Below, piece by piece: positions 1,923 to 46,483 of a DNA stretch of 64,000 nucleotides. Made by a program: the position numbers and the translations under genes. Source of the DNA: an uncultured Candidatus Saccharibacteria bacterium (GTDB lineage Bacteria; Patescibacteriota; Minisyncoccia; Phycocordibacterales; UBA9973); the NCBI GenBank assembly GCA_964544225.1, contig CAZIZK010000002.1:69452-133451 (forward strand), written 5' to 3'. Position 1 is the stretch's first letter. Every line of letters starts with the position of its first letter. The notes below the pieces were generated by a model. The model was not told the origin of the DNA, did no database searches, and worked only from the letters and a program-made list of their open reading frames with translations.

Positions 1923-2792
1923 ATGGAAGAATTGAATGCTGAAAAATTAAAATTCCTACGAATCAAAGCGACAGAGATCCGCGAGAGTATTATTAGTATG
2001 TTGCTGGAGGCAAAGAGCGGGCACACTGCAGGACCACTGGGTATGGCAGACATCTTTACACTACTTTATTTCCACGCTATGCATAATGATCCAAAGGATC
2101 CGTACATGAAGAACCGTGATCGACTAGTATTGTCAAACGGGCATATCTGCCCAGTATTGTATGCGACTATGGCACACCGTGGGTATTTCCCTATAGAGGA
2201 ATTGAAGACTTTAAGAAAATTTGGCAGTCGCCTACAAGGCCACCCACACCGCGAGTTCATGCCATGGCTTGAAACTTCATCGGGCCCACTGGGAAGTGGA
2301 CTTTCACAAGCAGTGGGTATGGCTATAGCCGACAGGATGGACAATGGTGTAAATACACATACTACAATGTATGCACTACTTTCCGATGGTGAGCATGATG
2401 AAGGTAATATATGGGAGGCAGTGATACTGGGTGCAAAAGAAAAGCTAGGCAACCTAATAGCCATTATTGACCGCAACAATATCCAGATCGACGGCTATAC
2501 CGAGGATGTAATGCCACTAGGGGATATGAGCAAGAAATACAAAGAGTTCGGCTGGCATGTGCAGGAGATCAATGGCCACAATATGGAAGATATAAACAAT
2601 GCTATCAATACAGCAAAGGCAGTGCGTGACAAGCCATCTGTAATAGTGGCGCGTACTATCCCGGGTAAAGGTGTGAAGGAATTTGAATACGACTTCCACT
2701 GGCATGGAGTGGCACCGGATCGCGAGCAGGCCAACATGGCTTTGAAGGAACTGCGTACATTACAAGGCCAGATAGAGGGGGAACACATGTAA
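1923..2792 (+). CDS. tktA: Transketolase, N-terminal subunit (split tkt)
   Basis: SGHTAGPLGMADIFTLLY..NRDRLVLSNGH..GHP motifs of the transketolase TPP-binding half. Confidence 0.85.
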   Translation: MEELNAEKLKFLRIKATEIRESIISMLLEAKSGHTAGPLGMADIFTLLYFHAMHNDPKDPYMKNRDRLVLSNGHICPVLYATMAHRGYFPIEELKTLRKFGSRLQGHPHREFMPWLETSSGPLGSGLSQAVGMAIADRMDNGVNTHTTMYALLSDGEHDEGNIWEAVILGAKEKLGNLIAIIDRNNIQIDGYTEDVMPLGDMSKKYKEFGWHVQEINGHNMEDINNAINTAKAVRDKPSVIVARTIPGKGVKEFEYDFHWHGVAPDREQANMALKELRTLQGQIEGEHM

Positions 2793-2800
2793 AATATTTT

Positions 2801-3787
2801 ATGTTAAATCAATCATTAAAATTAAATACAAAAATGTGGAACGACGATGTGGAACAGCTACCAATACGCAAAGGCTTTGGCCAAGGGTTATTGAAAGCGG
2901 GTGAGAACGATGCCAACATTGTCGCACTATGTGCTGACCTGACCGAGAGTACTCAAATGCATTTCTTTAAAGAAAGATTTCCTGAAAGATTTGTACAGAT
3001 AGGTGTCGCCGAGCAGAACCTAGTAACAGTAGCAAGTGGTATGAGTGCCATGGGAAAAATCCCTTTTGTATCTAGCTATGCGATGTTTAGCCCAGGCAGA
3101 AATTGGGAACAGATTCGTACAACTATTGCATACAATGACAGGAAGGTGGTGATAGTCGGCTCACATGCTGGTATATCTGTTGGTCCCGATGGAGGTACAC
3201 ACCAAGCTATCGAGGATATGGCTATCATGCGTGTGATACCCAATATGGTGGTGATATCACCATGCGACGCTATCGAGGCCAGGAAGGCGACCCTCGCACT
3301 TGCAAAAAGTAAGGAGCCAGCATACCTGCGCCTCGCTCGCGAGAAGACTCCGATAATGACTACCGATGATACACCTTTTGAGATAGGAAAGGCACAGATA
3401 ATGTTCGTACCAGAAGCAGGCCTTGCCCAAGTAGGTATCATTGCAACAGGCGCACTCGTACACAAGGCACTTGTGGCGGCAAAGCAATTGGAAGGCGAGG
3501 GCATAAAAGTAAAAGTAATGAATATAGCAACTATCAAGCCACTGGATACCGAGGCGGTGATAGCGCTTGCAAAAGAAGCTAAGAAAATTATAACAGTCGA
3601 GGAGCACCAGATAGCCGGAGGCCTTGGAAGCGCTGTGGCTGAATGCCTAGCCGAGAACTATCCGGTAAAGATAAAGTTCATCGGAGTTCATGACAAATTC
3701 GGTCAGTCTGGCACCCCAGCAGAACTTATTGAACATTATGGTATGGGGGTAAAAGACATACTAAAAGCAGTAAAGGAAATCTTATAA
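2801..3787 (+). CDS. tktB: Transketolase, C-terminal subunit (split tkt)
   Basis: Pyrimidine-binding and C-terminal domains (VGSHAGISVGPDGGTHQ). Immediately downstream of the N-terminal subunit. Confidence 0.85.
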   Translation: MLNQSLKLNTKMWNDDVEQLPIRKGFGQGLLKAGENDANIVALCADLTESTQMHFFKERFPERFVQIGVAEQNLVTVASGMSAMGKIPFVSSYAMFSPGRNWEQIRTTIAYNDRKVVIVGSHAGISVGPDGGTHQAIEDMAIMRVIPNMVVISPCDAIEARKATLALAKSKEPAYLRLAREKTPIMTTDDTPFEIGKAQIMFVPEAGLAQVGIIATGALVHKALVAAKQLEGEGIKVKVMNIATIKPLDTEAVIALAKEAKKIITVEEHQIAGGLGSAVAECLAENYPVKIKFIGVHDKFGQSGTPAELIEHYGMGVKDILKAVKEIL

Positions 3788-3808
3788 TAAATAAGCATTT
3801 CGTGTTAA

Positions 3809-3827
3809 TATATATATATATATATAT
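3809..3827. repeat. (TA)9 dinucleotide tract abutting the start codon
   Basis: tatatatatatatatatat directly precedes and overlaps ATG 3826. A homologous (TA)5 tract precedes the paralog at 25797-25807. Confidence 0.9.
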
Positions 3828-6636
3828 GAATTCAAGCAATAAATTAAAACAAATATTTATATCTACATTTATTGTTGGTATTTTTGTATTATTCTTAATA
3901 CCTTTAAATACAAATGCAGCAACTTGGACACAACAATTAGGTTCAGGTAGTAGGTATTGGTCCGATGTAGCTTCATCATCTGATGGTACAAAATTGGTAG
4001 CGGTAGGAAATAATAGTTCTGATGGAGTATATATCTACACATCAACCGACAGTGGAGCAACCTGGACAGAGCGAACAGGTGCAGGACAGCATAATTGGAG
4101 AGGGGTAGCTTCTTCATCTGATGGTACAAAATTGGTAGCTATATATTATGATGGTTCCGCTGGTTCTATATACACATCAAGTGACAGTGGGGCAAACTGG
4201 ACAGAGCGTACAGGCGCTGGTTCTAGGCAATTTTTTTCAGTCGCATCATCTGCTGATGGTACAAAGCTTGTAATTGGTGTAATTGGTGGTGGATATATCT
4301 ACACATCAAGTGACAGTGGGGCAAACTGGACAGAGCGTACAGGCGCTGGTAGCTCATATTGGTACAGTGTTGCATCATCAGCTGACGGTACAAAATTAGT
4401 AGCAGTAAAAAATACAGGTCTCGGTTCTGACTATATCTATACATCCACTGACAGTGGAGCAAACTGGACAGAGCGCACAGGTGCTGGTAATAAGCGTTGG
4501 ACAAGCGTTGCATCATCTACTGATGGTACAAAATTGGTAGCAGTAGAAGATAATAATAGTAATGCTGGTGGGGGGTATGTATACACATCTACTGACAGTG
4601 GTGCAAACTGGACACAACAAACTGGTTCGGGTCTTGATTTTTGGCAGAGTGTTGCATCATCTGCTGATGGTAGTATATTGATAGCAACAACATATAATTA
4701 TATATATCTATCTTACGATAGTGGTGTTAGTTGGGCAGCACAAACTCTTGCAGGTAATCAAACTTGGGGAAGCACTGCTTCATCGTCTGATGGTACAAAA
4801 TTCATTACATTTGCACCTGGTCCTGGTAATCTAGGTTATATATACACATCTCCTGCGATTGTCCCTTCGTTAACAACAGGTGCATCTTCATCTACAACAC
4901 AAACAACAACAACGTTATCTAGTAATATGGTAGATATAGGTGCAGACACACCAACAATACGAGGTGTCCAATATGGATTAACAACATCTTATGGATCAAC
5001 AGCTTCAGAAAGTGGTTCATTTAGTACAGGTGTGTACACCTTGGGATTAACAGGTCTGACTTGTAACTCTACTTATCATTATCGTGCATACTCAACCAAT
5101 AGTTCTGGTACAGGATACGGTAGCGACGCAACATTTAGTACTTCTTATTGTGCACCTACCATGACTTCTGGATCTTCTTCATCTATAGCTAGCACAACAG
5201 CAACTCTAGCTGGTGAAATAACGGCAAATGGTGGAGCAACAAGTACCATACGAGGTTTCCAATATGGCACAACAACCTCTTATGGATCCACAGTTTCAGA
5301 AAGTGGGTCATATGGACCATTTGGTACATACCTCTCCCAATTTGGAACAAATGGTGGTGGTGACGGAGAGCTTGATTATAGTCAAGGAATTGAAACAGAT
5401 TCTTCTGGTAATATATATGTTGTTGATCAGTATAATGGACGCGTTCAGAAATTTAACTCTAGTGGAACTTTTGTTTGGAAAACAAGTTATGCATTTGACT
5501 ATCCTACTGGTATAGCTATTGACTCATCGGGTAATCTTTATGTTCTTGATGGTAATAGTACAGTTGTAAAGCTCGACCCTTCTGGTATATATGTATCCCA
5601 ATTCAGTTCAAATGGTTCTGGCAATGGAGAGTTAGCATACCCTTATGCAATAGCTATTGACTCAGATGATAATATTTATATAGCTGATAGTGGTAATAGC
5701 CGTATTCAGAAATTCGATCCAAGTGGTGTGTATCTTTTGCAGTGGGATGGAAGTGATAGTCCTGATGGAGCTCTATCCGTTCCTCGAGGTATTGCAGTTG
5801 GTGCAGATGGTAATATATATGTATCTGAGCGTAATGCCTCAAGAAGAATTATAAAATTTACACCTTCTGGAGTTTATATTTCTCAATTCGGATCATCAGG
5901 CTCTGGAGATGGACAGTTTAATAGACCTCATGGTATAACAGTCGATTCTTTAGGTAATATATACGTAGCTGATATGAATAACAACCGTATTCAGAAATTC
6001 GATTCTACTGGTGCCTATGTAGCCCAATTCGGCTCATCTGGTTCTGGAAATGTAGAATTCTCGCAACCTTTTGATGTGGCTATAGATTCAAATAATAATA
6101 TATATGTATCTGATACTAATAATAATCGTGTCCAAAAGTTAGCAGTTTCTGGTAACTACACAGCTTCACTTACAGGTCTTGTGTGTGGAACCACATACCA
6201 CTACCGTGCGTATGCTACAAACTCTATAGATACTGGATATGGATCTGACGCGACATTTACCACATCTGCATGTGCTACAAGTTCTGCAACAGGTTCATCG
6301 GCTGGTAGTAGAATACAAAATTTATTAAATATGGGTAAAGTGGATGAGGCGCAAAAATTAGCACTCCAATTTCCAAATGCAGTAACTCCAACTCAAAATC
6401 AATTCAATACCCCAGGTATACAAATAACAAAGAAGCTGATAAGGGGTATTAAAGACAATGAAGTAAAGACACTTCAAACCATACTAAATAAAATATTAAA
6501 TATGAATCTAGTAATCGACGGAGCTTTTGGACTAAAGACTCGTAATGCTGTTATGGAATTTCAAAAGAAATATAATCTAAAGGCCGATGGGGTAGTAGGG
6601 CCTATGACAAGAGGGGTATTAAATAAATTATTATAG
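3826..6636 (+). CDS. Large secreted surface protein with BNR/Asp-box propeller, Fn3-like modules, NHL repeats and a C-terminal peptidoglycan-binding domain
   Basis: Signal peptide present. About seven S-x-D-S-G-A-x-W-T (BNR) repeats with a period near 46 aa. Two Fn3-like modules (LTGLxCxTTYHYRAYxTN..GxGYGSD). Six NHL repeats (GNIYVxDxxNNRIQKF). C-terminal DGxFGxKTxxAVxxFQKxxxLxADGVVGPxT = PG_binding_1. The ORF caller's GTG at 3802 runs through a (TA)9 tract. ATG 3826 (MNSSNKLKQ) is the likely start. Confidence 0.7.
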   Translation: MNSSNKLKQIFISTFIVGIFVLFLIPLNTNAATWTQQLGSGSRYWSDVASSSDGTKLVAVGNNSSDGVYIYTSTDSGATWTERTGAGQHNWRGVASSSDGTKLVAIYYDGSAGSIYTSSDSGANWTERTGAGSRQFFSVASSADGTKLVIGVIGGGYIYTSSDSGANWTERTGAGSSYWYSVASSADGTKLVAVKNTGLGSDYIYTSTDSGANWTERTGAGNKRWTSVASSTDGTKLVAVEDNNSNAGGGYVYTSTDSGANWTQQTGSGLDFWQSVASSADGSILIATTYNYIYLSYDSGVSWAAQTLAGNQTWGSTASSSDGTKFITFAPGPGNLGYIYTSPAIVPSLTTGASSSTTQTTTTLSSNMVDIGADTPTIRGVQYGLTTSYGSTASESGSFSTGVYTLGLTGLTCNSTYHYRAYSTNSSGTGYGSDATFSTSYCAPTMTSGSSSSIASTTATLAGEITANGGATSTIRGFQYGTTTSYGSTVSESGSYGPFGTYLSQFGTNGGGDGELDYSQGIETDSSGNIYVVDQYNGRVQKFNSSGTFVWKTSYAFDYPTGIAIDSSGNLYVLDGNSTVVKLDPSGIYVSQFSSNGSGNGELAYPYAIAIDSDDNIYIADSGNSRIQKFDPSGVYLLQWDGSDSPDGALSVPRGIAVGADGNIYVSERNASRRIIKFTPSGVYISQFGSSGSGDGQFNRPHGITVDSLGNIYVADMNNNRIQKFDSTGAYVAQFGSSGSGNVEFSQPFDVAIDSNNNIYVSDTNNNRVQKLAVSGNYTASLTGLVCGTTYHYRAYATNSIDTGYGSDATFTTSACATSSATGSSAGSRIQNLLNMGKVDEAQKLALQFPNAVTPTQNQFNTPGIQITKKLIRGIKDNEVKTLQTILNKILNMNLVIDGAFGLKTRNAVMEFQKKYNLKADGVVGPMTRGVLNKLL

Positions 6637-8146: not shown

Positions 8147-9142
8147 ATGAACAAAGAAATACTTATAGATACAGTTAGTAAATTAGTAAAAGAACCAAAG
8201 GGAATACTCGCTATCGATGAGAGCATGCCTACTTGTAATACTCGATTTGAAAAATTGGGCATCCCGACAACAGAAGAAAAGCGCCGAGATTACCGTGACT
8301 TGTTAGTATCTGCCCCTGGTATAGAACAATACGTTTCTGGATATATCACATTCGACGAGACAATGCGCCAGAGCACACGCGATGGAGTAACATTCCCAAA
8401 TGTTTTAAAGAATAAGGGTATTGAGGTGGGTATCAAGCTCGATGAAGGTACAAAGAATTTCAACGACATGGGTGAGAAGGTGACAACAGGCTTGGATAGT
8501 CTGCCAACACGCATACCAGAATACAAAGCTATGGGTGCAAGCTTTGCAAAGTGGCGCGCTGTGATAAATATCGGTGATGGTTTACCAACTGACGAGGCAT
8601 TGAATGCAAATGCTCAAGCTTTATCAAAATATGCAAAGATCTGCCAAGACAATGATATCGTTCCAATAGTTGAGCCTGAAGTTCTAATCGATGGTAACCA
8701 CACTATGGAGCGTTGTTATGAGGTAACAGCAAACAACTTAGATATTTTATTTACAGCTTTAGCTAATGAAGGTGTATTTATTCCCGGCATAATTTTAAAG
8801 ACAAGTATGATCCTACCAGGTAAAGATAGTGGTATCATTGCAATACCCGAGCAAGTAGCCGAGATGACAATCAAATGTCTTCGTGAACATGTACCAGCAG
8901 ATATTGGTGGCATTGTGTTCCTCTCTGGTGGCCAGAGCGATATGGACGCAGTGTTGAACCTAAACGCAATGAAGAAGAATGCTGACTTGCCTTGGGCTCT
9001 GACATTCTCATACGGGCGTGCAATACAGAACAATGCATTACAAGCTTGGGCAAAGAATCCTACAGATATAGCCGGCGCACAAAATGCATTACTTGAATCT
9101 GCAAAGGCAAATAGCCTAGCATCTGTGGGTCAATATAAATAA
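8147..9142 (+). CDS. fba: Fructose-bisphosphate aldolase, class I
   Basis: GILAIDES..RRDYRDLL..GIKLDEG matches the eukaryote-type class I FBA signature. Confidence 0.8.
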   Translation: MNKEILIDTVSKLVKEPKGILAIDESMPTCNTRFEKLGIPTTEEKRRDYRDLLVSAPGIEQYVSGYITFDETMRQSTRDGVTFPNVLKNKGIEVGIKLDEGTKNFNDMGEKVTTGLDSLPTRIPEYKAMGASFAKWRAVINIGDGLPTDEALNANAQALSKYAKICQDNDIVPIVEPEVLIDGNHTMERCYEVTANNLDILFTALANEGVFIPGIILKTSMILPGKDSGIIAIPEQVAEMTIKCLREHVPADIGGIVFLSGGQSDMDAVLNLNAMKKNADLPWALTFSYGRAIQNNALQAWAKNPTDIAGAQNALLESAKANSLASVGQYK

Positions 9143-9155
9143 TTAATTTTTCAAA

Positions 9156-10898
9156 ATGATATTATCAAACGAGTTAAAGAAAATAATAAAGGGTGATGTA
9201 GACGACACTATCGATACGCGTACCAAATATTCACGCGACGCGAGCCTACTCGAGGTAATGCCCGAGGTGGTAGTGTATCCGAAGGACTCGGCCGATGTAT
9301 GTGCAATAGTAAAGTGGGTTAGTGAGAATAAAGATACATATTCCAAATTATCTATCACAGCGCGCTCTGCTGGAACATGTATGTCTGGTGGCGCTATCGG
9401 TGAGTCTATTATCATGGACTTTACTCGTTATATGAATGTTATCGAAGGTGTAAATAAAGTCACACCATTTAATATCGTTCCGAAATACCCAAACGCTCAC
9501 GAGGTAGAAGTGGCAGGCCAGGCGACTGTAATGCCAGGGTGCTATTATCGTGACTTTGAAAAGGTAACATTGGAGAATGGTTTGATATTACCTTGCTACA
9601 CCGCTTCCAAGAGTATCAATGCTGTCGGTGGTATGGTGGGCAACAACTCTGCTGGGGAGAAGACTTTGCAATACGGCAAGACCGAGGATTATATAAAGGA
9701 ATTGAGTGTAGTATTTGCTGATGGGTATGAATATGTTGTAAAGCCACTCAATAAAAAAGAGTTGTATGCAAAAATAGCGCAGACCGACTTTGAGGGCAAA
9801 GTCTACAAAGATATATTCAATATGATAAAGGACAATGCCATGACACTGAAAAATGCAAAGCCAAATGTTAGCAAGAACTCTGCCGGCTACTATCTATGGA
9901 ATGTATGGGATGAAGAAAAAGAAATATTTGACCTAACAAAATTAATCGTAGGTTCACAGGGGACACTCGGTATAGTTACAAAGATCACTTTCCACCTGAC
10001 AGCGGTAAAGCCTGCTTCAAAGTTGGTGGTATTGTTCATGAAAGATCTGAGCAAGCTCGGTGATGTGGTAGATACAATACTCCCATACAAGCCCGAGAGT
10101 ATCGAGAGTTACGATGATGCTACTATGAAGCTCGCTATAAAGTTCTTCCCAGACTTTTTCAAGAAGAAGGGCGCATGGGGGATGATAAAGTTCATGTGGA
10201 GCTTCTGGCCAGAAGTATTTATGATGCTAGCAGGTGGTATGCCAAAGTTGATAATCCTTGTCGAGTTTGCAGGCGACAGTGAGGCTGTGATAGATAAACA
10301 GGCAAAAGATTTTGCCAAAGATATAAAGAAGTTTGGCTTTCCAACACGTGTTACTGCAAGTAAATCTGAAAGTGAAAAGTATTGGGATATTCGCCGGGAG
10401 AGCTTCGCCCTTCTTCGCAAACATGTGAAGGACAAGCATACAGCACCGTTTATCGACGACATTATCGTGGCTCCACACTTACTTCCACAATTCCTGCCAG
10501 AGTTAAATAAAATATTGAAGGATTACCCGATCACTTATACTATTGCCGGCCATGCTGGTAATGGGAACTTCCATATCATACCGCTTATGGACTTCTCTGA
10601 CCCTAAAACAGCCGAGATCATTATCGAATTGTCTGCAAAGGTTTATGACCTAGTGATAAAATACAAAGGCTCCACAACAGCCGAGCACAATGATGGTATC
10701 ATCCGCACAGCATTCCTGAACCAAATGTATGGTGACAATGTTACAAAGCTTTTTGCAGATACAAAGAATCTATTTGACCCAAAGGTAATACTGAACCCAG
10801 GCAAGAAGGTGGCATTGGGCGATGGAGGCCCAGGAACTGTTGAATATATTCGTTCACATATAATAAAAGAATCCCACGACCATAGTCATAAAGTGTAA
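9156..10898 (+). CDS. FAD-linked oxidase, D-lactate dehydrogenase (Dld)-like
   Basis: N-terminal PCMH-type FAD-binding region. 580 aa length and the C-terminal ..AEHNDG..NPGK resemble quinone-dependent Dld. Confidence 0.55.
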   Translation: MILSNELKKIIKGDVDDTIDTRTKYSRDASLLEVMPEVVVYPKDSADVCAIVKWVSENKDTYSKLSITARSAGTCMSGGAIGESIIMDFTRYMNVIEGVNKVTPFNIVPKYPNAHEVEVAGQATVMPGCYYRDFEKVTLENGLILPCYTASKSINAVGGMVGNNSAGEKTLQYGKTEDYIKELSVVFADGYEYVVKPLNKKELYAKIAQTDFEGKVYKDIFNMIKDNAMTLKNAKPNVSKNSAGYYLWNVWDEEKEIFDLTKLIVGSQGTLGIVTKITFHLTAVKPASKLVVLFMKDLSKLGDVVDTILPYKPESIESYDDATMKLAIKFFPDFFKKKGAWGMIKFMWSFWPEVFMMLAGGMPKLIILVEFAGDSEAVIDKQAKDFAKDIKKFGFPTRVTASKSESEKYWDIRRESFALLRKHVKDKHTAPFIDDIIVAPHLLPQFLPELNKILKDYPITYTIAGHAGNGNFHIIPLMDFSDPKTAEIIIELSAKVYDLVIKYKGSTTAEHNDGIIRTAFLNQMYGDNVTKLFADTKNLFDPKVILNPGKKVALGDGGPGTVEYIRSHIIKESHDHSHKV

Positions 10899-10902
10899 TA
10901 AA

Positions 10903-10937
10903 AAAATCCTTCATACATAGTACGAAGGATTTTTATA
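10903..10937. terminator. Bidirectional terminator (atccttc..gaaggatttttat)
   Basis: Hairpin flanked by A-run and T-run between convergent genes. Confidence 0.6.
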
Positions 10938-10951
10938 ATTGTTTGAGAAAA

Positions 10952-11707
10952 TTACTTTCTTTTAATACTACCAGATCCTGACATATCAATATCAGAAACT
11001 AGAGTATTCTTTGGAAGTATTAAACTTCCACTGCCAGTGATTTCTACCTCATCTATGCTTGCGCATTTGTTGATAGATACATCGGCTGAGCCAGTAATTT
11101 CAATCTTGTTAGCATGCTTACAGCTATCAATTGATACCGAAGCGGAACCTGTTACCTCAAGTTGCATTAAGTTTGTAACTAAAGCAACAGTAACATCGGA
11201 ACTTCCTGTAATTTCCAAATTTAAATTTGTTACTTTGTTGTTGATAGTTACATCATACAACGAAGTTATTTTTAAATCTGAATTATCAGGCATGGTAATT
11301 GCAAAAGTTGTTATTGGTGTAGAGTTATTAGGTATAACCTGACCATTTACAATGATTACATTTTTACCTGATACTTTTTTGCCATCGATTGTAATTGTAT
11401 TGGTATTACCAGTATTGATTATTGTTCCATCAATATTAGTATTACCACCGATTATAACCGAACCGTTAGAGCCACCTACAACATTTACGCCTGTATTTAC
11501 TCCTTTGAGTGTATACATCTGCGATAAAGAGTCATAGGTTAGGGTAACATTGTATTTTTTCAAGGTGTCTTTGTTTGGTAAACTGAGAGCACCTTTATTT
11601 ATTACAATGTTTCCAGGAAGATTTTTTAAGGTCAATTTCTGACCATAAACGCAATTGCTACTGATGCACAGTGCAAGTAAGATAAGGTAATTAATGTAAT
11701 TTTTCAT
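10952..11707 (-). CDS. Secreted repeat protein, putative adhesin-like beta-helix (DUF2807/DUF4097-like)
   Basis: Signal peptide present. Repeated E(I/V)TGS(A/S)DV(S/T) units with a period near 20 aa. Confidence 0.45.
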   Translation of the reverse strand: MKNYINYLILLALCISSNCVYGQKLTLKNLPGNIVINKGALSLPNKDTLKKYNVTLTYDSLSQMYTLKGVNTGVNVVGGSNGSVIIGGNTNIDGTIINTGNTNTITIDGKKVSGKNVIIVNGQVIPNNSTPITTFAITMPDNSDLKITSLYDVTINNKVTNLNLEITGSSDVTVALVTNLMQLEVTGSASVSIDSCKHANKIEITGSADVSINKCASIDEVEITGSGSLILPKNTLVSDIDMSGSGSIKRK

Positions 11708-24216: not shown

Positions 24217-25173
24217 ATGAGACAGATATATCAAATACTTTTATACTATAAATATGTGCATGTAGACGACCCTAAAATGCTTCGGGATCTGCAATTTCAC
24301 CTATGTCAGGACTTGGATATGCGTGGGCGCATAATAGTGGCTCATGAGGGCATAAATGGCACTGTAGAGGGGACTGTAGATGCTTGTGTCGAGTATATGA
24401 GGGTTATGAAGGCCGACCCACGTTTTGCCGATATACACTGGAAGATCAGCGATGGAACAGCCGACGGCACCGCCTTTCCAAGGCTATCAGTAAAGACACG
24501 CCCCGAGATAGTATCACTACACTTAGGTGATGAAGAGGATATCGACCCGAACCAACTAACAGGTGTGCACCTAAAGCCTGAACAGTTGAGGCAGTGGTAT
24601 GAAAGTGGCGAGGAATTCCACATAGTAGATATGCGCAATGAATACGAGCTACGTGTTGGTAAGTTCGAAGGTACCGTATTCCCAGATCTTGATAATTTCC
24701 GTGATTTGAAGAAGAACTTGAAGAAACTAGAAGGACTGAAGGACAAGAAGGTCCTAACTGTTTGTACTGGTGGCGTGCGTTGCGAAAAGGCTTCAGGGTT
24801 ACTTGTTCGCGAAGGGTTCAAAGATGTCTATCAGCTCGATGGTGGTATGGTCAGTTATATGGAGAAATACCCAGGGCAGGACTTCAAAGGTTCACTATAT
24901 GTATTCGACAAGCGCAATGTAATGCACTTCGAAGATCCGGATAAGCACGAAATCATCGGCCGTTGCGCCAAGTGTGGTGTTCCTAGCGAGCATTATGTAA
25001 ACTGTGCGAACCTCATGTGCCACGACCACTTCATCTGTTGCGAGGATTGTCTAGAAGAACCTATTGGTAACCATCCATCGGGTGGGGTAGCGTATTGCGA
25101 CTGGAAATGTAATTTAAAATGGAAGCTCTATAATAAAAAGAACAATTTTTTTAAAAAGTTTGCCCACAAATAA
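24217..25173 (+). CDS. trhO: tRNA uridine(34) hydroxylase TrhO (UPF0176/YceA, rhodanese-domain protein)
   Basis: RGRIIVAHEGINGTVEG N-terminal signature. Rhodanese CTGGVRCEK. C-terminal Cys-rich Zn finger. Start taken at MRQIYQILLYYKY (ORF caller start 24181). Confidence 0.75.
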   Translation: MRQIYQILLYYKYVHVDDPKMLRDLQFHLCQDLDMRGRIIVAHEGINGTVEGTVDACVEYMRVMKADPRFADIHWKISDGTADGTAFPRLSVKTRPEIVSLHLGDEEDIDPNQLTGVHLKPEQLRQWYESGEEFHIVDMRNEYELRVGKFEGTVFPDLDNFRDLKKNLKKLEGLKDKKVLTVCTGGVRCEKASGLLVREGFKDVYQLDGGMVSYMEKYPGQDFKGSLYVFDKRNVMHFEDPDKHEIIGRCAKCGVPSEHYVNCANLMCHDHFICCEDCLEEPIGNHPSGGVAYCDWKCNLKWKLYNKKNNFFKKFAHK

Positions 25174-25796
25174 TGCAAGATTTTACAAAAAAAGAAATAG
25201 CACTGTTTAGAAAGTTAAATACACCGGCAAAGGTGCAGGACTTCCTAAATACTATTCCTTTCAATTTTGAAGAAGACGGCAAAGATGTTATAAAGTCACC
25301 ACTTCATGTAATACGTACTAACAATGCTCACTGTATCGAGGGGGCAATACTTGGTGCATATATACTGTCACTACACAGTCACAAGCCGTATATTATGAAT
25401 CTGCGTACAACTGCCCATGATCTAGAGCATGTGATAGTGCCTTTCAAGGTGGGCGGACTGTGGGGTTGTCTGTCAAAAACGAATCATGCAGTACTTCGCT
25501 ATCGTGACCCAGTTTACAAGACCATCCGCGAGTTGGTTATGTCGTATTTCAACGAGTATTATCTAGATGATGGCACCAAGACTCTGCGCCAATATTCAAA
25601 CCTAGTAAATTTAAATATTTTCAAGGATGATTGGTACAAGGCTGACTATGATTTGTGGAGTATCGACGATGAATTGGATAGTGCTATGTATCATGACATT
25701 GCACCAAAAAATATTTTGAAGAACTTACGCAAAGCAGACCCTATAGAGCGTGAGGCTGGTAAATTGATGAATTGGAAAAAGGGTAATATGTGTTAA
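25173..25796 (+). CDS. Hypothetical protein (possible Cys/His hydrolase fold)
   Basis: 207 aa ORF with conserved-looking NAHCIEGAILGAYIL and DLEHV segments. No confident family assignment. Confidence 0.4.
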   Translation: MQDFTKKEIALFRKLNTPAKVQDFLNTIPFNFEEDGKDVIKSPLHVIRTNNAHCIEGAILGAYILSLHSHKPYIMNLRTTAHDLEHVIVPFKVGGLWGCLSKTNHAVLRYRDPVYKTIRELVMSYFNEYYLDDGTKTLRQYSNLVNLNIFKDDWYKADYDLWSIDDELDSAMYHDIAPKNILKNLRKADPIEREAGKLMNWKKGNMC

Positions 25797-25807
25797 TATA
25801 TATATAT
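25797..25807. repeat. (TA)5 tract abutting the start codon of the paralogous surface protein
   Basis: tatatatatat precedes and overlaps ATG 25806. Homologous to the (TA)9 at 3809-3827. Confidence 0.9.
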
Positions 25808-27746
25808 GAATTCAAACAATAAATTAAAACAAATATCTAGAAATATATTATTTATATTTTCTTTTCTATCATTAGTTTTACCAACGAGTGTGTTTGCTGC
25901 TGCTGGTACTCCTGATACTACATTTACCACAAATATGGGTGATCCAGGGCTTGATAATGTTGTACGTGCTTCTGTTGTATTGTCTAATGACAAAATAGTT
26001 GTTGGAGGGTCTTTTAATTATTTAAATGACATAATAGATGCAAATTATGTTGCTGGGTTTAATAGTGATGGAACTCCGGATACTACATTTAATACAAATC
26101 TTGGGACAGGCTTTAGTGATGCTGTATATGCTATGGCTGTTCAATCTGATGATAAAATAGTTGTAGGAGGGTCTTTTACTGGTATAAATGGAACAACAAG
26201 CAATCGTATAGCTCGATTAAACAGTGACGGAACACTTGATACTACTTTTACCACAAATATTGGCACAGGATTTGGAGCTACTCGTGTAAACACTATCGCT
26301 ATCCAGTCTGACGGCAAGATAGTTGTTGGAGGTTCGTTTAGTACTATAAACGGGGTGACAAGTAACCGTATCGCTCGATTAAACAGCGACGGAACTCCAG
26401 ATACTACCTTTACCACTAATATCGGTACAGGGTTTGGTAGTAGCGTGTATCGTGTAGGGATACAGTCTGATGGTAAAATAATTGCTGGAGGAATATTTAG
26501 TACTCTTAATGATGTATCTACTACTACTATAGCTCGATTAAACAGCGACGGTACTCCTGATACTACATTTACCACAAATATTGGTACAGGATTTGATAAT
26601 GATGTACAAACATTAGCGGTTTTATCTAATGATAAGATCGTTGTCGGTGGATTAATAGAAAATTTTAATGGCACGAGTATACATTTCTTTACTGGGTTAA
26701 ATAGTGATGGTACATTAGATACAACATTTAATACAAATCTTGGGACAGGCTTTGGTAATTTCGTAGAGACCATCGCTATCCAATCTGACAATAAAATAAT
26801 AGTAGGAGGGTCTTTTACTACAATTAACGGTGTAACTAGTAACCGTATTGCAAGGTTAAGTAGTGTTGGAATCCCAGATACTACCTTTACCACTAATATC
26901 GGTACAGGGTTTGATGGAACAACACGCACGATTGCTTTCCAATCTGATGGTAAAATAATCGTTGGAGGGGCTTTTGGTTCTGTAAATAGTGTAACTAGTA
27001 ATTACGTTGCTCGTCTTGATGGTGATGTATTTGCTCCTACTGTCACTACTGGTTCAAGCTCGGCTATTACCACAACTACTGCAACCCTTGCCGGTAATAT
27101 AACAGTCACCGGTGGTGAGAATAGTACAACTCGTGGAGTCGAATATGGTCTAACAACAGGTTATGGTACAACTTCATCAGCTTCAGGAAGCTTCAGTACA
27201 GGTGCGTATACTACCGACATCACCGGTCTTACTTGTGGCACTACATACCACTATCGTGCGTATAGTACAAATACTGCAGGTACTGGTACAGGTAGTGATG
27301 ATACATTTACCACATCTACTTGTCCTGTAGTTGCAAGTACTAACAATACTTCTTCTGGGTCATCTGCCGGATCTCGAGCTTCCAACCTATTTGCTATGGG
27401 TAAAGTAACTGAAGCAAATAAAATACTGCAACAATTCCCAAATGCTATAAATGAAATCAAAGATGCAAATACAAAGAATGCTCTATCAAATACAAATACT
27501 GAAAATTCTAATTCTAATATTTCTGGATCAAAGATAACAAAGAAGTTGATTAAAGGTATGAAAGATAATGAAGTAAAGATACTTCAAACAGTTCTAAACA
27601 AAGTATTAAAACTCGGTTTAACTGTAGATGGTGTATTCGGTCAGAAGACCAAAGATGCTGTTATGCAATTCCAAAAAGCTAATAATCTAAAGGCCGATGG
27701 GGTAGTGGGGCCTATAACAAGAGGTGTTTTAAATAAATTACTATAA
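25806..27746 (+). CDS. Secreted surface protein with delta-60-like beta-propeller repeats, one Fn3-like module and a C-terminal peptidoglycan-binding domain
   Basis: N-terminus MNSNNKLKQI is near-identical to the 3826 gene. About nine repeats of roughly 60 aa (GTPDTTFTTNIGTGFG..IQSDGKIVVGGSF..INGVTSNRIARLNSDG). Fn3-like GLTCGTTYHYRAYSTN. The C-terminal PG_binding_1 is about 70% identical to that of the 3826 protein. Confidence 0.7.
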   Translation: MNSNNKLKQISRNILFIFSFLSLVLPTSVFAAAGTPDTTFTTNMGDPGLDNVVRASVVLSNDKIVVGGSFNYLNDIIDANYVAGFNSDGTPDTTFNTNLGTGFSDAVYAMAVQSDDKIVVGGSFTGINGTTSNRIARLNSDGTLDTTFTTNIGTGFGATRVNTIAIQSDGKIVVGGSFSTINGVTSNRIARLNSDGTPDTTFTTNIGTGFGSSVYRVGIQSDGKIIAGGIFSTLNDVSTTTIARLNSDGTPDTTFTTNIGTGFDNDVQTLAVLSNDKIVVGGLIENFNGTSIHFFTGLNSDGTLDTTFNTNLGTGFGNFVETIAIQSDNKIIVGGSFTTINGVTSNRIARLSSVGIPDTTFTTNIGTGFDGTTRTIAFQSDGKIIVGGAFGSVNSVTSNYVARLDGDVFAPTVTTGSSSAITTTTATLAGNITVTGGENSTTRGVEYGLTTGYGTTSSASGSFSTGAYTTDITGLTCGTTYHYRAYSTNTAGTGTGSDDTFTTSTCPVVASTNNTSSGSSAGSRASNLFAMGKVTEANKILQQFPNAINEIKDANTKNALSNTNTENSNSNISGSKITKKLIKGMKDNEVKILQTVLNKVLKLGLTVDGVFGQKTKDAVMQFQKANNLKADGVVGPITRGVLNKLL

Positions 27747-44855: not shown

Positions 44856-44890
44856 TAAAGCGACACAATTTGTCGCTTTTTTATTTTTTA
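44856..44890. terminator. Bidirectional terminator (aaagcgacacaatttgtcgctttttt)
   Basis: Hairpin with flanking A-run and T-run between convergent genes. Confidence 0.65.
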
Positions 44891-45408
44891 TAATATTTAC
44901 ACCCTTTTACATGCGCGCCAGGTAGCAGGCCTATGGACATGAGGAATTCATTTACTATTTCCCCGCCGGTAAATTTAAATGTTTTCTTGAACAATTTCAC
45001 CCACTCCCCTTTATTTAAATTTGGATACTCCAAAAGCCATTTATGGAACGACCCATGTTTCTTTTGTAACCCTATTATTACATTGGCATTATGTATGGCC
45101 GCATCTACCTTTAGCCTGTTACGGATTATCCCCGCATCGGCCAGTAGTCGTGCACGGTCAGTATCACCATACTTTGCTACCTTTTTAATATTAAAATTAT
45201 TATAAGCTTTTCTAAAATTCTTTTGCTTGTTTAATATAGTGTTCCAGCTTAGGCCGGCTTGGTTTATCTCCAGTATCAACCTTTCAAATAAATCATTATC
45301 GTCATTTATATCCACGCCATAGAATTGGTCATGGTATACACGGTGCACATTGTCCGGTGGTAATGTCTTTACATAATCACAATAAGATTTTGGTTTTTCT
45401 TTTCCCAT
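44881..45408 (-). CDS. tag: DNA-3-methyladenine glycosylase I
   Basis: CxY..YHDxEWGVP-like N-terminus (YCDYV..YHDQFYGVD), EINQAGLSW and Zn-binding Cys. Confidence 0.85.
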   Translation of the reverse strand: MGKEKPKSYCDYVKTLPPDNVHRVYHDQFYGVDINDDNDLFERLILEINQAGLSWNTILNKQKNFRKAYNNFNIKKVAKYGDTDRARLLADAGIIRNRLKVDAAIHNANVIIGLQKKHGSFHKWLLEYPNLNKGEWVKLFKKTFKFTGGEIVNEFLMSIGLLPGAHVKGCKYYKK

Positions 45409-45417
45409 TTGAGTTTA

Positions 45418-45451
45418 AACATTCCTACATTCTCAAGAATGTAGGAATGTT
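45418..45451. promoter_or_regulatory. Perfect 16-2-16 palindrome P1 (candidate ArsR-family operator)
   Basis: AACATTCCTACATTCT-CA-AGAATGTAGGAATGTT. Lies 10 bp upstream of the tag ATG and overlaps the last codons of the regulator gene. Confidence 0.6.
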
Positions 45452-45733: not shown

Positions 45734-45767
45734 GACATTCGCACATTCTCAAGAATGTAGGAATGTT
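45734..45767. promoter_or_regulatory. Palindrome P2 (candidate operator overlapping the regulator's own promoter)
   Basis: gACATTCgcACATTCT-CA-AGAATGTAGGAATGTT, two mismatches from P1 and P3. Sits immediately upstream of the -10 of the ArsR-family gene. Confidence 0.6.
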
Positions 45768-45814: not shown

Positions 45815-46180
45815 TTACTTCCCTTCTACGAATTTGAGTGATATTGAATTTACACAGTGGCGGGTGTTTTTGTCTGTTAGCATCTCGCCTTCGAATACGT
45901 GGCCTAGGTGGCCACCACAGTTTGCACAAGTGATCTCTTGCCCATAATATGGATCAATATAAGAGGCTCTTTTGATAGCACCTGGAATCTCCTGATCAAA
46001 ACTTGGCCATCCGCATGTATATTCGAATTTATCCTTTGAGTCATATAGCGGTGCATTGCACTGCTTGCACACATATACACCCGTTGCTTTGTTATTCACA
46101 TACTCACCGGTAAAAGGCATCTCGGTCCCTTTGTCCACTATCACCCTCTTCTCTTCCTCTGTTAGTTGATTTAATTGCAT
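45815..46180 (-). CDS. msrB: Peptide methionine sulfoxide reductase MsrB
   Basis: SelR domain with CxxC..CxxC zinc site and catalytic RHCVNS. Start taken at MQLNQLTEEEK. The ORF caller's 5' extension overlaps the upstream small gene. Confidence 0.85.
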   Translation of the reverse strand: MQLNQLTEEEKRVIVDKGTEMPFTGEYVNNKATGVYVCKQCNAPLYDSKDKFEYTCGWPSFDQEIPGAIKRASYIDPYYGQEITCANCGGHLGHVFEGEMLTDKNTRHCVNSISLKFVEGK

Positions 46181-46190
46181 GTTATTTTTT

Positions 46191-46394
46191 TTATAACGGA
46201 ATTCCAAAACATAAAGATCTTTCTTCGGCATCTGCCAATTCTTTTGTAGGAGTATAGGTAAAGCCATAGCAATGCTTCTTTTCATTTGCCTCCCATGCAT
46301 CGTATATTTCTTTTGTTGTATAACCTGGGTACGTAACAAATGACTTTGGGAAAAAGAATACTGCTATTAAAATAAAAATTATCAAGTATTTCAT
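46191..46394 (-). CDS. Small secreted/membrane protein upstream of msrB
   Basis: MKYLIIFILIAVFFF signal/TM. 67 aa. Leaderless-type promoter 6 nt upstream. Confidence 0.35.
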   Translation of the reverse strand: MKYLIIFILIAVFFFPKSFVTYPGYTTKEIYDAWEANEKKHCYGFTYTPTKELADAEERSLCFGIPL

Positions 46395-46445: not shown

Positions 46446-46483
46446 TGAACATTCCTACATTCTCAAGAATGTAGGAATGTTCA
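46446..46483. promoter_or_regulatory. Perfect 18-2-18 palindrome P3
   Basis: TGAACATTCCTACATTCT-CA-AGAATGTAGGAATGTTCA, upstream of the small-protein/msrB operon promoter. Confidence 0.6.

Follow-up and report, generated by a model that had tools for sequence, protein, structure and literature searches.

How do two genes in one genome come to share their ends and not their cores? The question is raised by genes A (3826..6636) and B (25806..27746), both on the + strand of a 64-kb stretch of contig CAZIZK010000002.1 (hereafter the window), and both confirmed as open reading frames (ORFs), of 936 and 646 amino acids (aa) respectively. We found that the two predicted proteins combine a putative N-terminal signal peptide, one or two beta-propellers, Fn3-like modules and a C-terminal PG_binding_1 domain, that one propeller of A is nested within an Fn3-like module, and that comparison with related lineages reveals a mosaic history. 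In our opinion A and B probably encode Sec-exported proteins held non-covalently on peptidoglycan and displaying exchangeable propeller heads, which would have become mosaic by recombination at shared handles.

Common ends and unrelated cores

Three blocks are common to A and B: a 5' block, an Fn3-like module, and a linker followed by a PG_binding_1 tail. The 5' block (3806-3859 in A, 25784-25839 in B) is 89% identical over 56 nucleotides (nt) by blastn, and 97% identical along a 31-nt stretch. The 31-mer ATGAATTCAARCAATAAATTAAAACAAATAT occurs exactly 2 times in the window, at both ATGs, against 0 expected in shuffles. The Fn3-like module shows 66% aa identity between A and B and the C-terminal 182 aa show 54%, the last 212 nt being 77% identical, and the PG_binding_1 tail scores 55.1-58.9 bits in A and 56.5-62.1 bits in B (Pfam cut-off 23). 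This shared tail is anciently diverged, with a synonymous divergence (pS) of 0.57. By contrast, the cores are unrelated, consisting of NHL (147 bits) and BNR repeats in A, and of DUF5122 (258 bits) and TIGR02608 delta-60 (203 bits) repeats in B. The 3' flanks diverge directly after the stop codon, with no shared terminator found there, and a tblastn search of the window found no third copy besides A and B. The parts of the two genes are as follows.

Gene A
3802..3825, + strand: 5' block, GTGTTAA plus a 17-nt (TA)n tract; its TGtTAATAT resembles an extended -10 box; conserved in five loci
3826..3918, + strand: putative signal peptide, aa 1-31, which holds the sole long purely hydrophobic segment; cleavage predicted by inspection between TNA and A; first 11 codons within the shared 5' block
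3919..4854, + strand: seven-blade BNR/Asp-box propeller, aa 32-343 (motif counts, DNA repeats, Pfam BNR_6)
4858..5154, + strand: Fn3-like module 1, intact, aa 345-443 (custom profile; 66% aa identity to the B module)
5152..5331, + strand: Fn3-like module 2, N-terminal half, aa 443-502; four strands read as A, B, C and C' (custom profile; strands at 6-57 of the structural model)
5332..6147, + strand: six-blade NHL propeller, aa 503-774, nested in a loop of Fn3-like module 2 (Pfam, structural model, Foldseek)
6148..6276, + strand: Fn3-like module 2, C-terminal half, aa 775-817 (custom profile; 74% nt identity to B 27222-27326)
6277..6453, + strand: linker, aa 818-876, Ser/Gly-rich, with two short helices and a disordered stretch; conserved with B
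6454..6636, + strand: PG_binding_1, tail type 1, aa 877-936 plus stop (Pfam, three predicted helices, 77% nt identity to B)

Gene B
25790..25805, + strand: 5' block, GTGTTAA plus a 9-nt (TA)n tract, giving TGtTAATAT-N6-ATG; overlaps the stop of the upstream 207-aa ORF
25806..25898, + strand: putative signal peptide, aa 1-31; cleavage predicted by inspection between VFA and A
25899..27029, + strand: seven delta-60 (DUF5122) repeats, predicted seven-blade propeller, aa 32-408 (TIGR02608, DUF5122, repeats, structural model)
27033..27326, + strand: Fn3-like module, aa 410-507 (custom profile, E 2e-44)
to ~27341, + strand: CPVVAS junction after the Fn3-like module; 3' recombination breakpoint as mapped by comparison
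27327..27563, + strand: linker, aa 508-586, low complexity, Asn/Ser-rich
27564..27746, + strand: PG_binding_1, tail type 1, aa 587-646 plus stop (Pfam)

By inspection, both N-termini read as a basic n-region (MNSxNKLKQI) leading into a hydrophobic h-region, with a cleavage site of the A-x-A type behind it. No cysteine precedes residue 413 in A or residue 477 in B, and each Fn3-like module of the two proteins has one cysteine pair. An LPXTG motif, a C-terminal hydrophobic segment and any further membrane segment are absent from both, and no catalytic domain reaches threshold in Pfam and TIGRFAM-type profile scans.

The first head of A (aa 32-343) contains six Asp boxes (S-x-D-x-G-x-x-W) and seven SSxDGTKL strands by motif counts, together with seven DNA repeats (family D2) and a BNR_6 match of 28.9 bits (cut-off 27); on these motifs and this profile it is a predicted seven-blade BNR/Asp-box propeller. 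No sialidase catalytic family reaches threshold in profile scans of A (BNR_3, 19 bits against a cut-off of 27). The second head matches Pfam PF01436 (NHL) at 147.5 bits in 5 reported stretches, and motifs and inspection give six repeats. Its AlphaFold2 (AF2) model has a local confidence (pLDDT) >90 and superimposes on the NHL domains of TRIM71/Thin with Foldseek TM scores of 0.90-0.93, and on the PknD sensor (1rwl) with 0.83. Weak SGL/lactonase-type matches were also given by Pfam on this region. In B, the delta-60 repeats start at aa 34, 89, 142, 196, 249, 302 and 355; the core exceeds the cut-offs of TIGR02608 (76.5) and of PF17164, DUF5122 (257.8 bits, cut-off 27), and is modelled by AF2 as seven repeating units, again at pLDDT >90. 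Its closest solved fold is the CylK propeller, at 16-18% identity. In the same model of B the Fn3-like part has 6 strands at low confidence, and the PG_binding_1 region is likewise of low confidence. Relatives of the PG_binding_1 tail by sequence in the PDB include 5tv7, phiKZ gp144 (3bkh) and 1lbu.

A sequence-only reading of this DNA had described A and B as paralogues with common 5' and 3' ends and unrelated central bodies, and had given A a seven-blade BNR propeller and six NHL repeats. The blastn match, the 31-mer and the PG_binding_1 scores bear out the first point and the different Pfam/TIGRFAM repeat families the second, while motif counts, DNA repeats, Pfam and, for the NHL part, AF2 agree on the third; the NHL and delta-60 propellers it named could both be modelled with high confidence. 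Its count of about nine delta-60 repeats in B is reduced to seven, of ~53 aa each, by motifs, DNA repeats and AF2, and its label "giant" is not apt for proteins of this length. It had also listed one shared Fn3 module: the sharing holds, but A has two Fn3-like modules, the second of which is split by the NHL propeller.

A propeller nested in an Fn3-like module, and its relatives

The modules of A and B fall below Pfam cut-offs (fn3 PF00041, 14.9 bits against 25; Pur_ac_phosph_N, 13.7-14.6 bits against 30). Since homologous modules in relatives reach PF00041 and PF16656 while their own scores are sub-threshold, we call them Fn3-like. A custom hidden Markov model (HMM) built from seven intact Fn3-like modules matches A three times: at aa 345-443 (HMM positions 1-99, E 7e-44), at aa 443-502 (positions 2-60, E 6e-19) and at aa 775-817 (positions 57-99, E 2e-19). 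These three matches indicate that the 272-aa NHL propeller is inserted inside Fn3-like module 2, and an alignment of the region (A1) agrees. AF2 modelling of aa 440-936 of A (mean pLDDT 82.5) gives, from start to end, four strands, the propeller, a further three to four strands, a pair of helices in the linker, a disordered segment and a three-helix domain, the Fn3-like strands on either side of the propeller (4 + 3-4) having a pLDDT of 61-83. When the strand order is read from this model as A-B-C-C'/E-F-G, the insertion point would be the C'-E loop. In the numbering of this fragment, the linker helices lie at 385-409, pLDDT falls <50 at 414-436, and the three helices of the tail are predicted at 439-452, 464-476 and 487-496, with pLDDT ~84-86 for the first two and ~70 for the third.

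The nested arrangement recurs outside A. Of the proteins retrieved in this analysis, a further 14 contain 19 split Fn3 modules between them; the interruptions, 266-325 aa long and placed at the HMM position seen in A, are propellers of the NHL, BNR/Asp-box or FG-GAP-like kind. Two metagenome fragments, P0010 and P0037, have the same junction between NHL and the Fn3 C-terminal half as A. Propellers are seen in two positions, either N-terminal to the Fn3 module or nested in what we read as its C'-E loop.

When the Fn3-linker-PG_binding_1 end was used as a query, we retrieved metagenome proteins in which this tail follows BNR, NHL or different N-terminal regions; among relatives, the heads include NHL, BNR, SBBP, Kelch, FG-GAP, Laminin_G, Big_2 and delta-60, almost all of them in metagenome-assembled genomes (MAGs) of Patescibacteria. 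In a GTDB scan with one genome per species, where the best match had 48% identity, nine loci cover the full query from the half Fn3 to PG_binding_1 (L001-L006, L008, L039 and L057); seven of the nine are labelled Patescibacteria, Paceibacterota or Saccharibacteria, and two are without a phylum name. A Pfam scan of ten PG_binding_1-tailed GTDB proteins (six of these nine loci plus four partial matches) identified NHL (twice), SBBP, delta-60, Kelch, FG-GAP with Kelch, fn3 arrays and Big_2 as heads, nearly all of these proteins belonging to Patescibacteria-type MAGs and one to a bin labelled Bacteroidetes. BNR and/or NHL are combined with PG_binding_1 in 21 of the best 120 matches to A, and one of these (P0214) unites delta-60, NHL, fn3 and PG_binding_1. 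A profile search of 1.84 billion representatives returned 4,787 proteins at E<=1e-30; the contiguous tail is present in 21 of the top 150, usually at the extreme C-terminus, below heads that include NHL (6), SBBP (4), Laminin_G_3 (3), SASA (2), BNR/Sortilin (2) and DUF5122 (1).

Judged by these relatives, A and B are members of a large Patescibacteria family. Delta-60 proteins elsewhere provide a useful contrast. Those of Bacteroidota (TIGR02608/DUF5122) belong to the same repeat family as B and are likewise secreted multi-domain proteins, but they end in a type IX secretion system (T9SS) sorting domain (PF18962), whereas B, like its three close relatives, closes with Fn3-like plus PG_binding_1, an ending present in just 4 of the 120 best hits. 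Because delta-60 proteins elsewhere mostly carry the T9SS domain, the tail looks like a lineage-specific localisation module. The Patescibacteria-like character of the organism is consistent with an earlier remark that it might be an episymbiont, and is no proof of it.

Exchange of heads and tails between loci and lineages

Both genes are surrounded by housekeeping genes. The neighbours of A are pentose-phosphate enzymes, PfkB and an aldolase, and those of B are a rhodanese protein, a 207-aa ORF, DoxX and a methyltransferase. Three sets of relatives allow these surroundings to be compared. Contig L087 comes from a strain-level relative of the window (92% nt identity) and has B at the same place, between the 207-aa ORF and DoxX. 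A second lineage is represented by two assemblies, L004 and L088, which share 94% identity over 8 kb and whose synteny with the window takes in rpiB, rpe, tktN, tktC and pfkB; directly downstream of tktC, the window has A, and L004 and L088 have a B-type gene. Contig L093, which carries P0010, ends in a convergent pfkB gene that adjoins an NHL-type gene, and so represents the same tkt-pfkB locus in a third lineage. The underlying samples are SRR30542704 for L087, SRP285395 for L004, SRR12762274 for L088 and JGI 3300037882 for L093.

Between the window and the second lineage, eleven housekeeping genes are saturated at synonymous sites (pS 0.66-0.85), against a pS of 0.26-0.32 for the core of the B cassette. 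This cassette runs from 25790/1 to 27341 and retains 87-89% nt identity between the lineages. Homology of B to L004 and L088 begins exactly at 25790 and collapses just after the CPVVAS junction, the linker and PG_binding_1 domain beyond it showing 43% aa identity. The cassettes of L087 and L004 are 98.8% identical over 1,131 nt, with no mismatch at 26626-27225 and with unrelated flanks, although this figure may be inflated by chimerism, L087 being a short 4-kb k-mer (Logan) contig and L004 a co-assembly MAG. Neither the comparison of the window with L004 and L088 nor the concordance among independent assemblies relies on L087.

L004 has a second type of tail, 66% identical to that of the NHL-type protein P0010 and 43% identical to that of B. 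From the comparison of L004, P0010/L093 and the window it follows that NHL and delta-60 cores each occur with both tail types, in three combinations at one locus. Between the B genes of the window and L087 (25896-27340) identity is patchy, 0.67-1.00 per 90 nt, with a tail identity of 95-100%, which suggests either further intragenic mosaicism or chimerism in the short L087 contig. By comparison, then, heads and tails can be shown to have been exchanged between loci and between diverged lineages by recombination. As to the vehicle, a viral-contig scan with B gave only generic delta-60 proteins at 42-43% identity and hence no sign of a phage vector, no mobile-element genes adjoin A or B, and no template repeat like that of a diversity-generating retroelement was found in the window.

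The proposal of the sequence-only reading that A and B belong to a modular family diversified by domain swapping is thus supported by the tail relatives, the tkt-pfkB locus, the cassette pS and the assortment of cores and tails, and across lineages the same tkt-pfkB locus holds A, a B-type or an NHL-type gene. Its notion of constant ends needs amending: the ends are indeed shared, but the tail is of two exchangeable types and the 5' block has been seen in close relatives only.

This block, (C)GTGTTAA(TA)nATG plus the first 11 codons, is common to five loci (A, B, L087, L004 and L088). Its (TA)n tract, which separates GTGTTAA from the start codon, measures 17 nt in A (3809-3825), 9 nt in B (25797-25805) and 11 nt in L087 (748-758 of that contig), and is interrupted in L004 and L088 (9 and 11 nt, respectively). 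Since its length varies across the five loci, it might tune expression, and could be a simple-repeat expression switch. Over the 50 ORF starts of the window, a Shine-Dalgarno (SD)-like motif precedes only 5, and the commonest place of -10-like hexamers is 6 nt ahead of the ATG (nine ORFs at 6 nt, 14 at 5-7 nt), with an upstream TG in seven of the ORFs that have such a hexamer 4-9 nt from the ATG. The hexamer pattern and the near-lack of SD motifs point to widespread leaderless transcription in this genome. In B and in L004, L088 and L087, TGtTAATAT is followed after 6-8 nt by the ATG. In view of the genome-wide pattern TGnTAnnnT-N6-ATG, the mRNAs of A and B are probably leaderless, starting from the extended -10 box in a 5' block that would thus combine a promoter, a leaderless start and the n-region of the signal peptide. 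An in-frame GTG at 3802 was rejected as the start of A, the equivalent GTG being out of frame in B and L004 and the ATG being conserved. A metagenome scan with a 23-mer of the block gave 6 matches, none at a gene start and none related, which we attribute to chance. Rfam contains no RNA element matching A or B, its sole match in the window being one tRNA.

Some further features of these neighbourhoods deserve mention. The transketolase directly upstream of A is split into two genes for its N- and C-terminal halves (1923-3787), an arrangement kept in L004 and L088. Upstream of B, the 207-aa ORF (25173-25796) has its stop inside the 5' block of B, is conserved beside B in L087, and has a sub-threshold match to Vasohibin (E 5e-4), a transglutaminase-like cysteine protease fold; any functional link to B, for instance through processing or cross-linking, would be entirely speculative. 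In L004, an 824-aa ORF (8960-11434) lies two genes downstream of the B-type gene and has an N-terminal segment that shares 39% identity with the PG_binding_1 tails found in A and B; it encodes another predicted peptidoglycan-binding protein near the same locus. Elsewhere in the window, three copies of a 34-nt perfect palindrome, AACATTCCTACATTCTCAAGAATGTAGGAATGTT (45418-45451, 45734-45767 and 46448-46481, one of them at 91%), flank two minus-strand ORFs of ~175 aa (44881..45408 and 45815..46339) and look like a repeated operator or a terminator-type hairpin. Genes lie on the + strand from 1 to 33.6 kb and on the - strand from 34 to 64 kb, and cumulative GC skew peaks at ~36-38 kb; as the flip in orientation (~33600-38000) and the skew peak fit converging replication forks, the window probably spans the replication terminus.

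Possible function, alternatives and known systems

Each protein is laid out as a putative signal peptide, one or more propeller heads, Fn3-like modules, a flexible linker and a three-helix PG_binding_1 tail. We propose that the modules and linker would form a stalk, and that the tail would hold the protein on peptidoglycan, most likely that of the cell's own sacculus. The propellers (BNR and NHL in A, delta-60 in B) would be outward heads binding a ligand of a partner cell or of the environment. The conserved stretches, namely the 5' block plus signal peptide, the C-terminal half of the Fn3 module together with the CPVVAS junction, and the tail, in our view also serve as handles for homologous exchange, and A and B share their ends and not their cores because recombination at these handles swaps heads and tails.

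Several observations weigh against parts of this proposal. We infer wall binding, surface exposure and ligand binding from domain families, and the best-known PG_binding_1 domains are those of wall hydrolases and endolysins, which makes a foreign wall a possible target. In A, the TGtTAATAT box stands 14 nt, not 6, from the ATG owing to the longer (TA)n tract; neither A nor B is preceded by a -35/-10 promoter according to a consensus sigma-70 scan; and four related contigs were the only ones to yield the 5' block. The possible inflation of the L087-L004 identity, mentioned above, belongs here too. Finally, the ratio of nonsynonymous to synonymous divergence (dN/dS) of B between strains is 0.16, which indicates purifying and not arms-race selection.

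Could the recurring ends be explained more simply? If A and B were merely old paralogues that diverged along their whole length, with the ends as their slowest-evolving parts, one would expect what is indeed seen in the window, two copies only and an anciently diverged tail. However, the cores are different repeat families and folds, a single orthologous locus has different cores by lineage, the B cassette is much more recent than the genomes in which it is found, and cores and tails assort independently, so that this explanation is already contradicted and has next to no chance of being correct. Conservation without exchange is another option, in which the blocks would be kept for their function (promoter, leaderless start and signal peptide at one end, anchor at the other) and the apparent cassette transfer would be an artefact of assemblers switching between strains. 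The 5' block does fit a promoter with a leaderless start, the breakpoints match the limits of shared sequence, where assemblers can switch, and a short Logan contig and a co-assembly MAG are among the sources. Yet L004 and L088 are independent, agree over their 8 kb, and both have the B-type gene at tkt with a cassette divergence matching that of the flanks; the window and L087 both have B at the DoxX locus; and L093 independently has an NHL-type gene beside pfkB. Moreover, the B of the window is ~10% away from every other copy, and so does not consist of mis-joined reads of those strains, and still its pS is 0.26-0.32 against the 0.66-0.85 of the housekeeping genes. Given such concordance among independent assemblies, we regard constraint combined with artefact as unlikely.

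A different alternative concerns not the history of the genes but their target. The proteins may be secreted effectors whose tail docks on the peptidoglycan of a partner, with propellers that would process envelope material of the host as lectins or as enzymes, sialidase-like in the case of BNR and lactonase-like in that of NHL. Proteins with peptidoglycan-binding domains (PGBD) have been tied to host parasitism (Kuroda et al., PMC10936435), the solved relatives of PG_binding_1 are mostly endolysins, carboxypeptidases, SleB and L,D-transpeptidases, and the SGL/lactonase-type matches on the NHL region, weak as they are, point the same way. Against this, no catalytic domain rises above threshold in either protein, and some Patescibacteria have archaeal hosts, which are without murein. 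A C-terminal anchor followed outwards by a stalk and distal heads is also the usual layout of self-anchored proteins of monoderms. The evidence for recombination is neutral between a place on the cell's own surface and one on the wall of a partner; all in all, we think the effector role rather improbable, and prefer self-anchored proteins with exchangeable heads. A bolder extension of the latter would see in these genes a dedicated head-swapping system of Patescibacteria, with the leaderless 5' block and the Fn3 C-terminal half with CPVVAS as handles and the C'-E loop as a docking slot, in which entire propeller domains of different folds would cross between loci and between saturated lineages, plausibly by DNA uptake, re-tooling host or ligand specificity, with on/off tuning of leaderless translation by the (TA)n tract. 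We offer this only tentatively, as a possibility that may well prove too ambitious.

Among monoderm bacteria, modular surface proteins anchored non-covalently to the wall are known from the choline-binding proteins of pneumococcus, the GW and LysM proteins of Listeria and the CWB2 proteins of C. difficile, which form multi-gene families with mosaic evolution. Like A and B, they combine a signal peptide, a variable N-terminal part and a common C-terminal wall-binding module. However, A and B have a single three-helix PG_binding_1 anchor after an Fn3-like stalk, in place of choline-binding, GW, LysM or CWB2 repeats, their heads are beta-propellers, some nested in the stalk module, and their organism belongs to Patescibacteria. 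The NHL propellers of TRIM71, Brat and Thin and of M. tuberculosis PknD share the fold of the one in A, and that of PknD is likewise extracytoplasmic, but in A the propeller is inserted in an Fn3-like loop and joined to a wall-binding tail, instead of being part of a kinase or a TRIM E3 ligase. Neisseria opa and pilE/pilS, the Borrelia lipoprotein loci and Plasmodium DBLMSP also diversify exposed proteins by recombining modules at conserved flanks, yet there hypervariable segments of one fold are exchanged, and in A and B whole domains of different folds. Furthermore, no silent cassette archive was seen here, and exchange crosses lineages that are saturated at housekeeping synonymous sites.

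One of the closest descriptions comes from Paceibacteria, where extracellular PGBD proteins are highly expressed and have been proposed to function in host attachment (Kuroda et al., mBio 2024, PMC10936435). These resemble A and B in being predicted extracellular proteins of Patescibacteria with peptidoglycan-binding domains and Ig-like folds, but the study describes no propeller heads, no nested Fn3[propeller] arrangement and no cassette exchange, and the likeness is one of description only (PMC10936435). Our literature searches turned up no account of a slot for propellers in Fn3 or of such a cassette exchange, and those on the delta-60 repeat and on NHL repeats of the candidate phyla radiation came back empty.

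The propeller in an Fn3 loop is a clean natural domain insertion that could guide protein engineering. The larger interest is biological. Patescibacteria are abundant and mostly uncultivated; to our knowledge, all cultivated members live attached to other microbes, and we know of little that explains how they recognise and hold their partner cells. As all of it is inferred from sequence, the value of the present finding is that of a testable lead: the predicted wall-tethered propeller family would supply candidate determinants of attachment or host range, and the exchange of heads may be a mechanism by which such determinants change rapidly.

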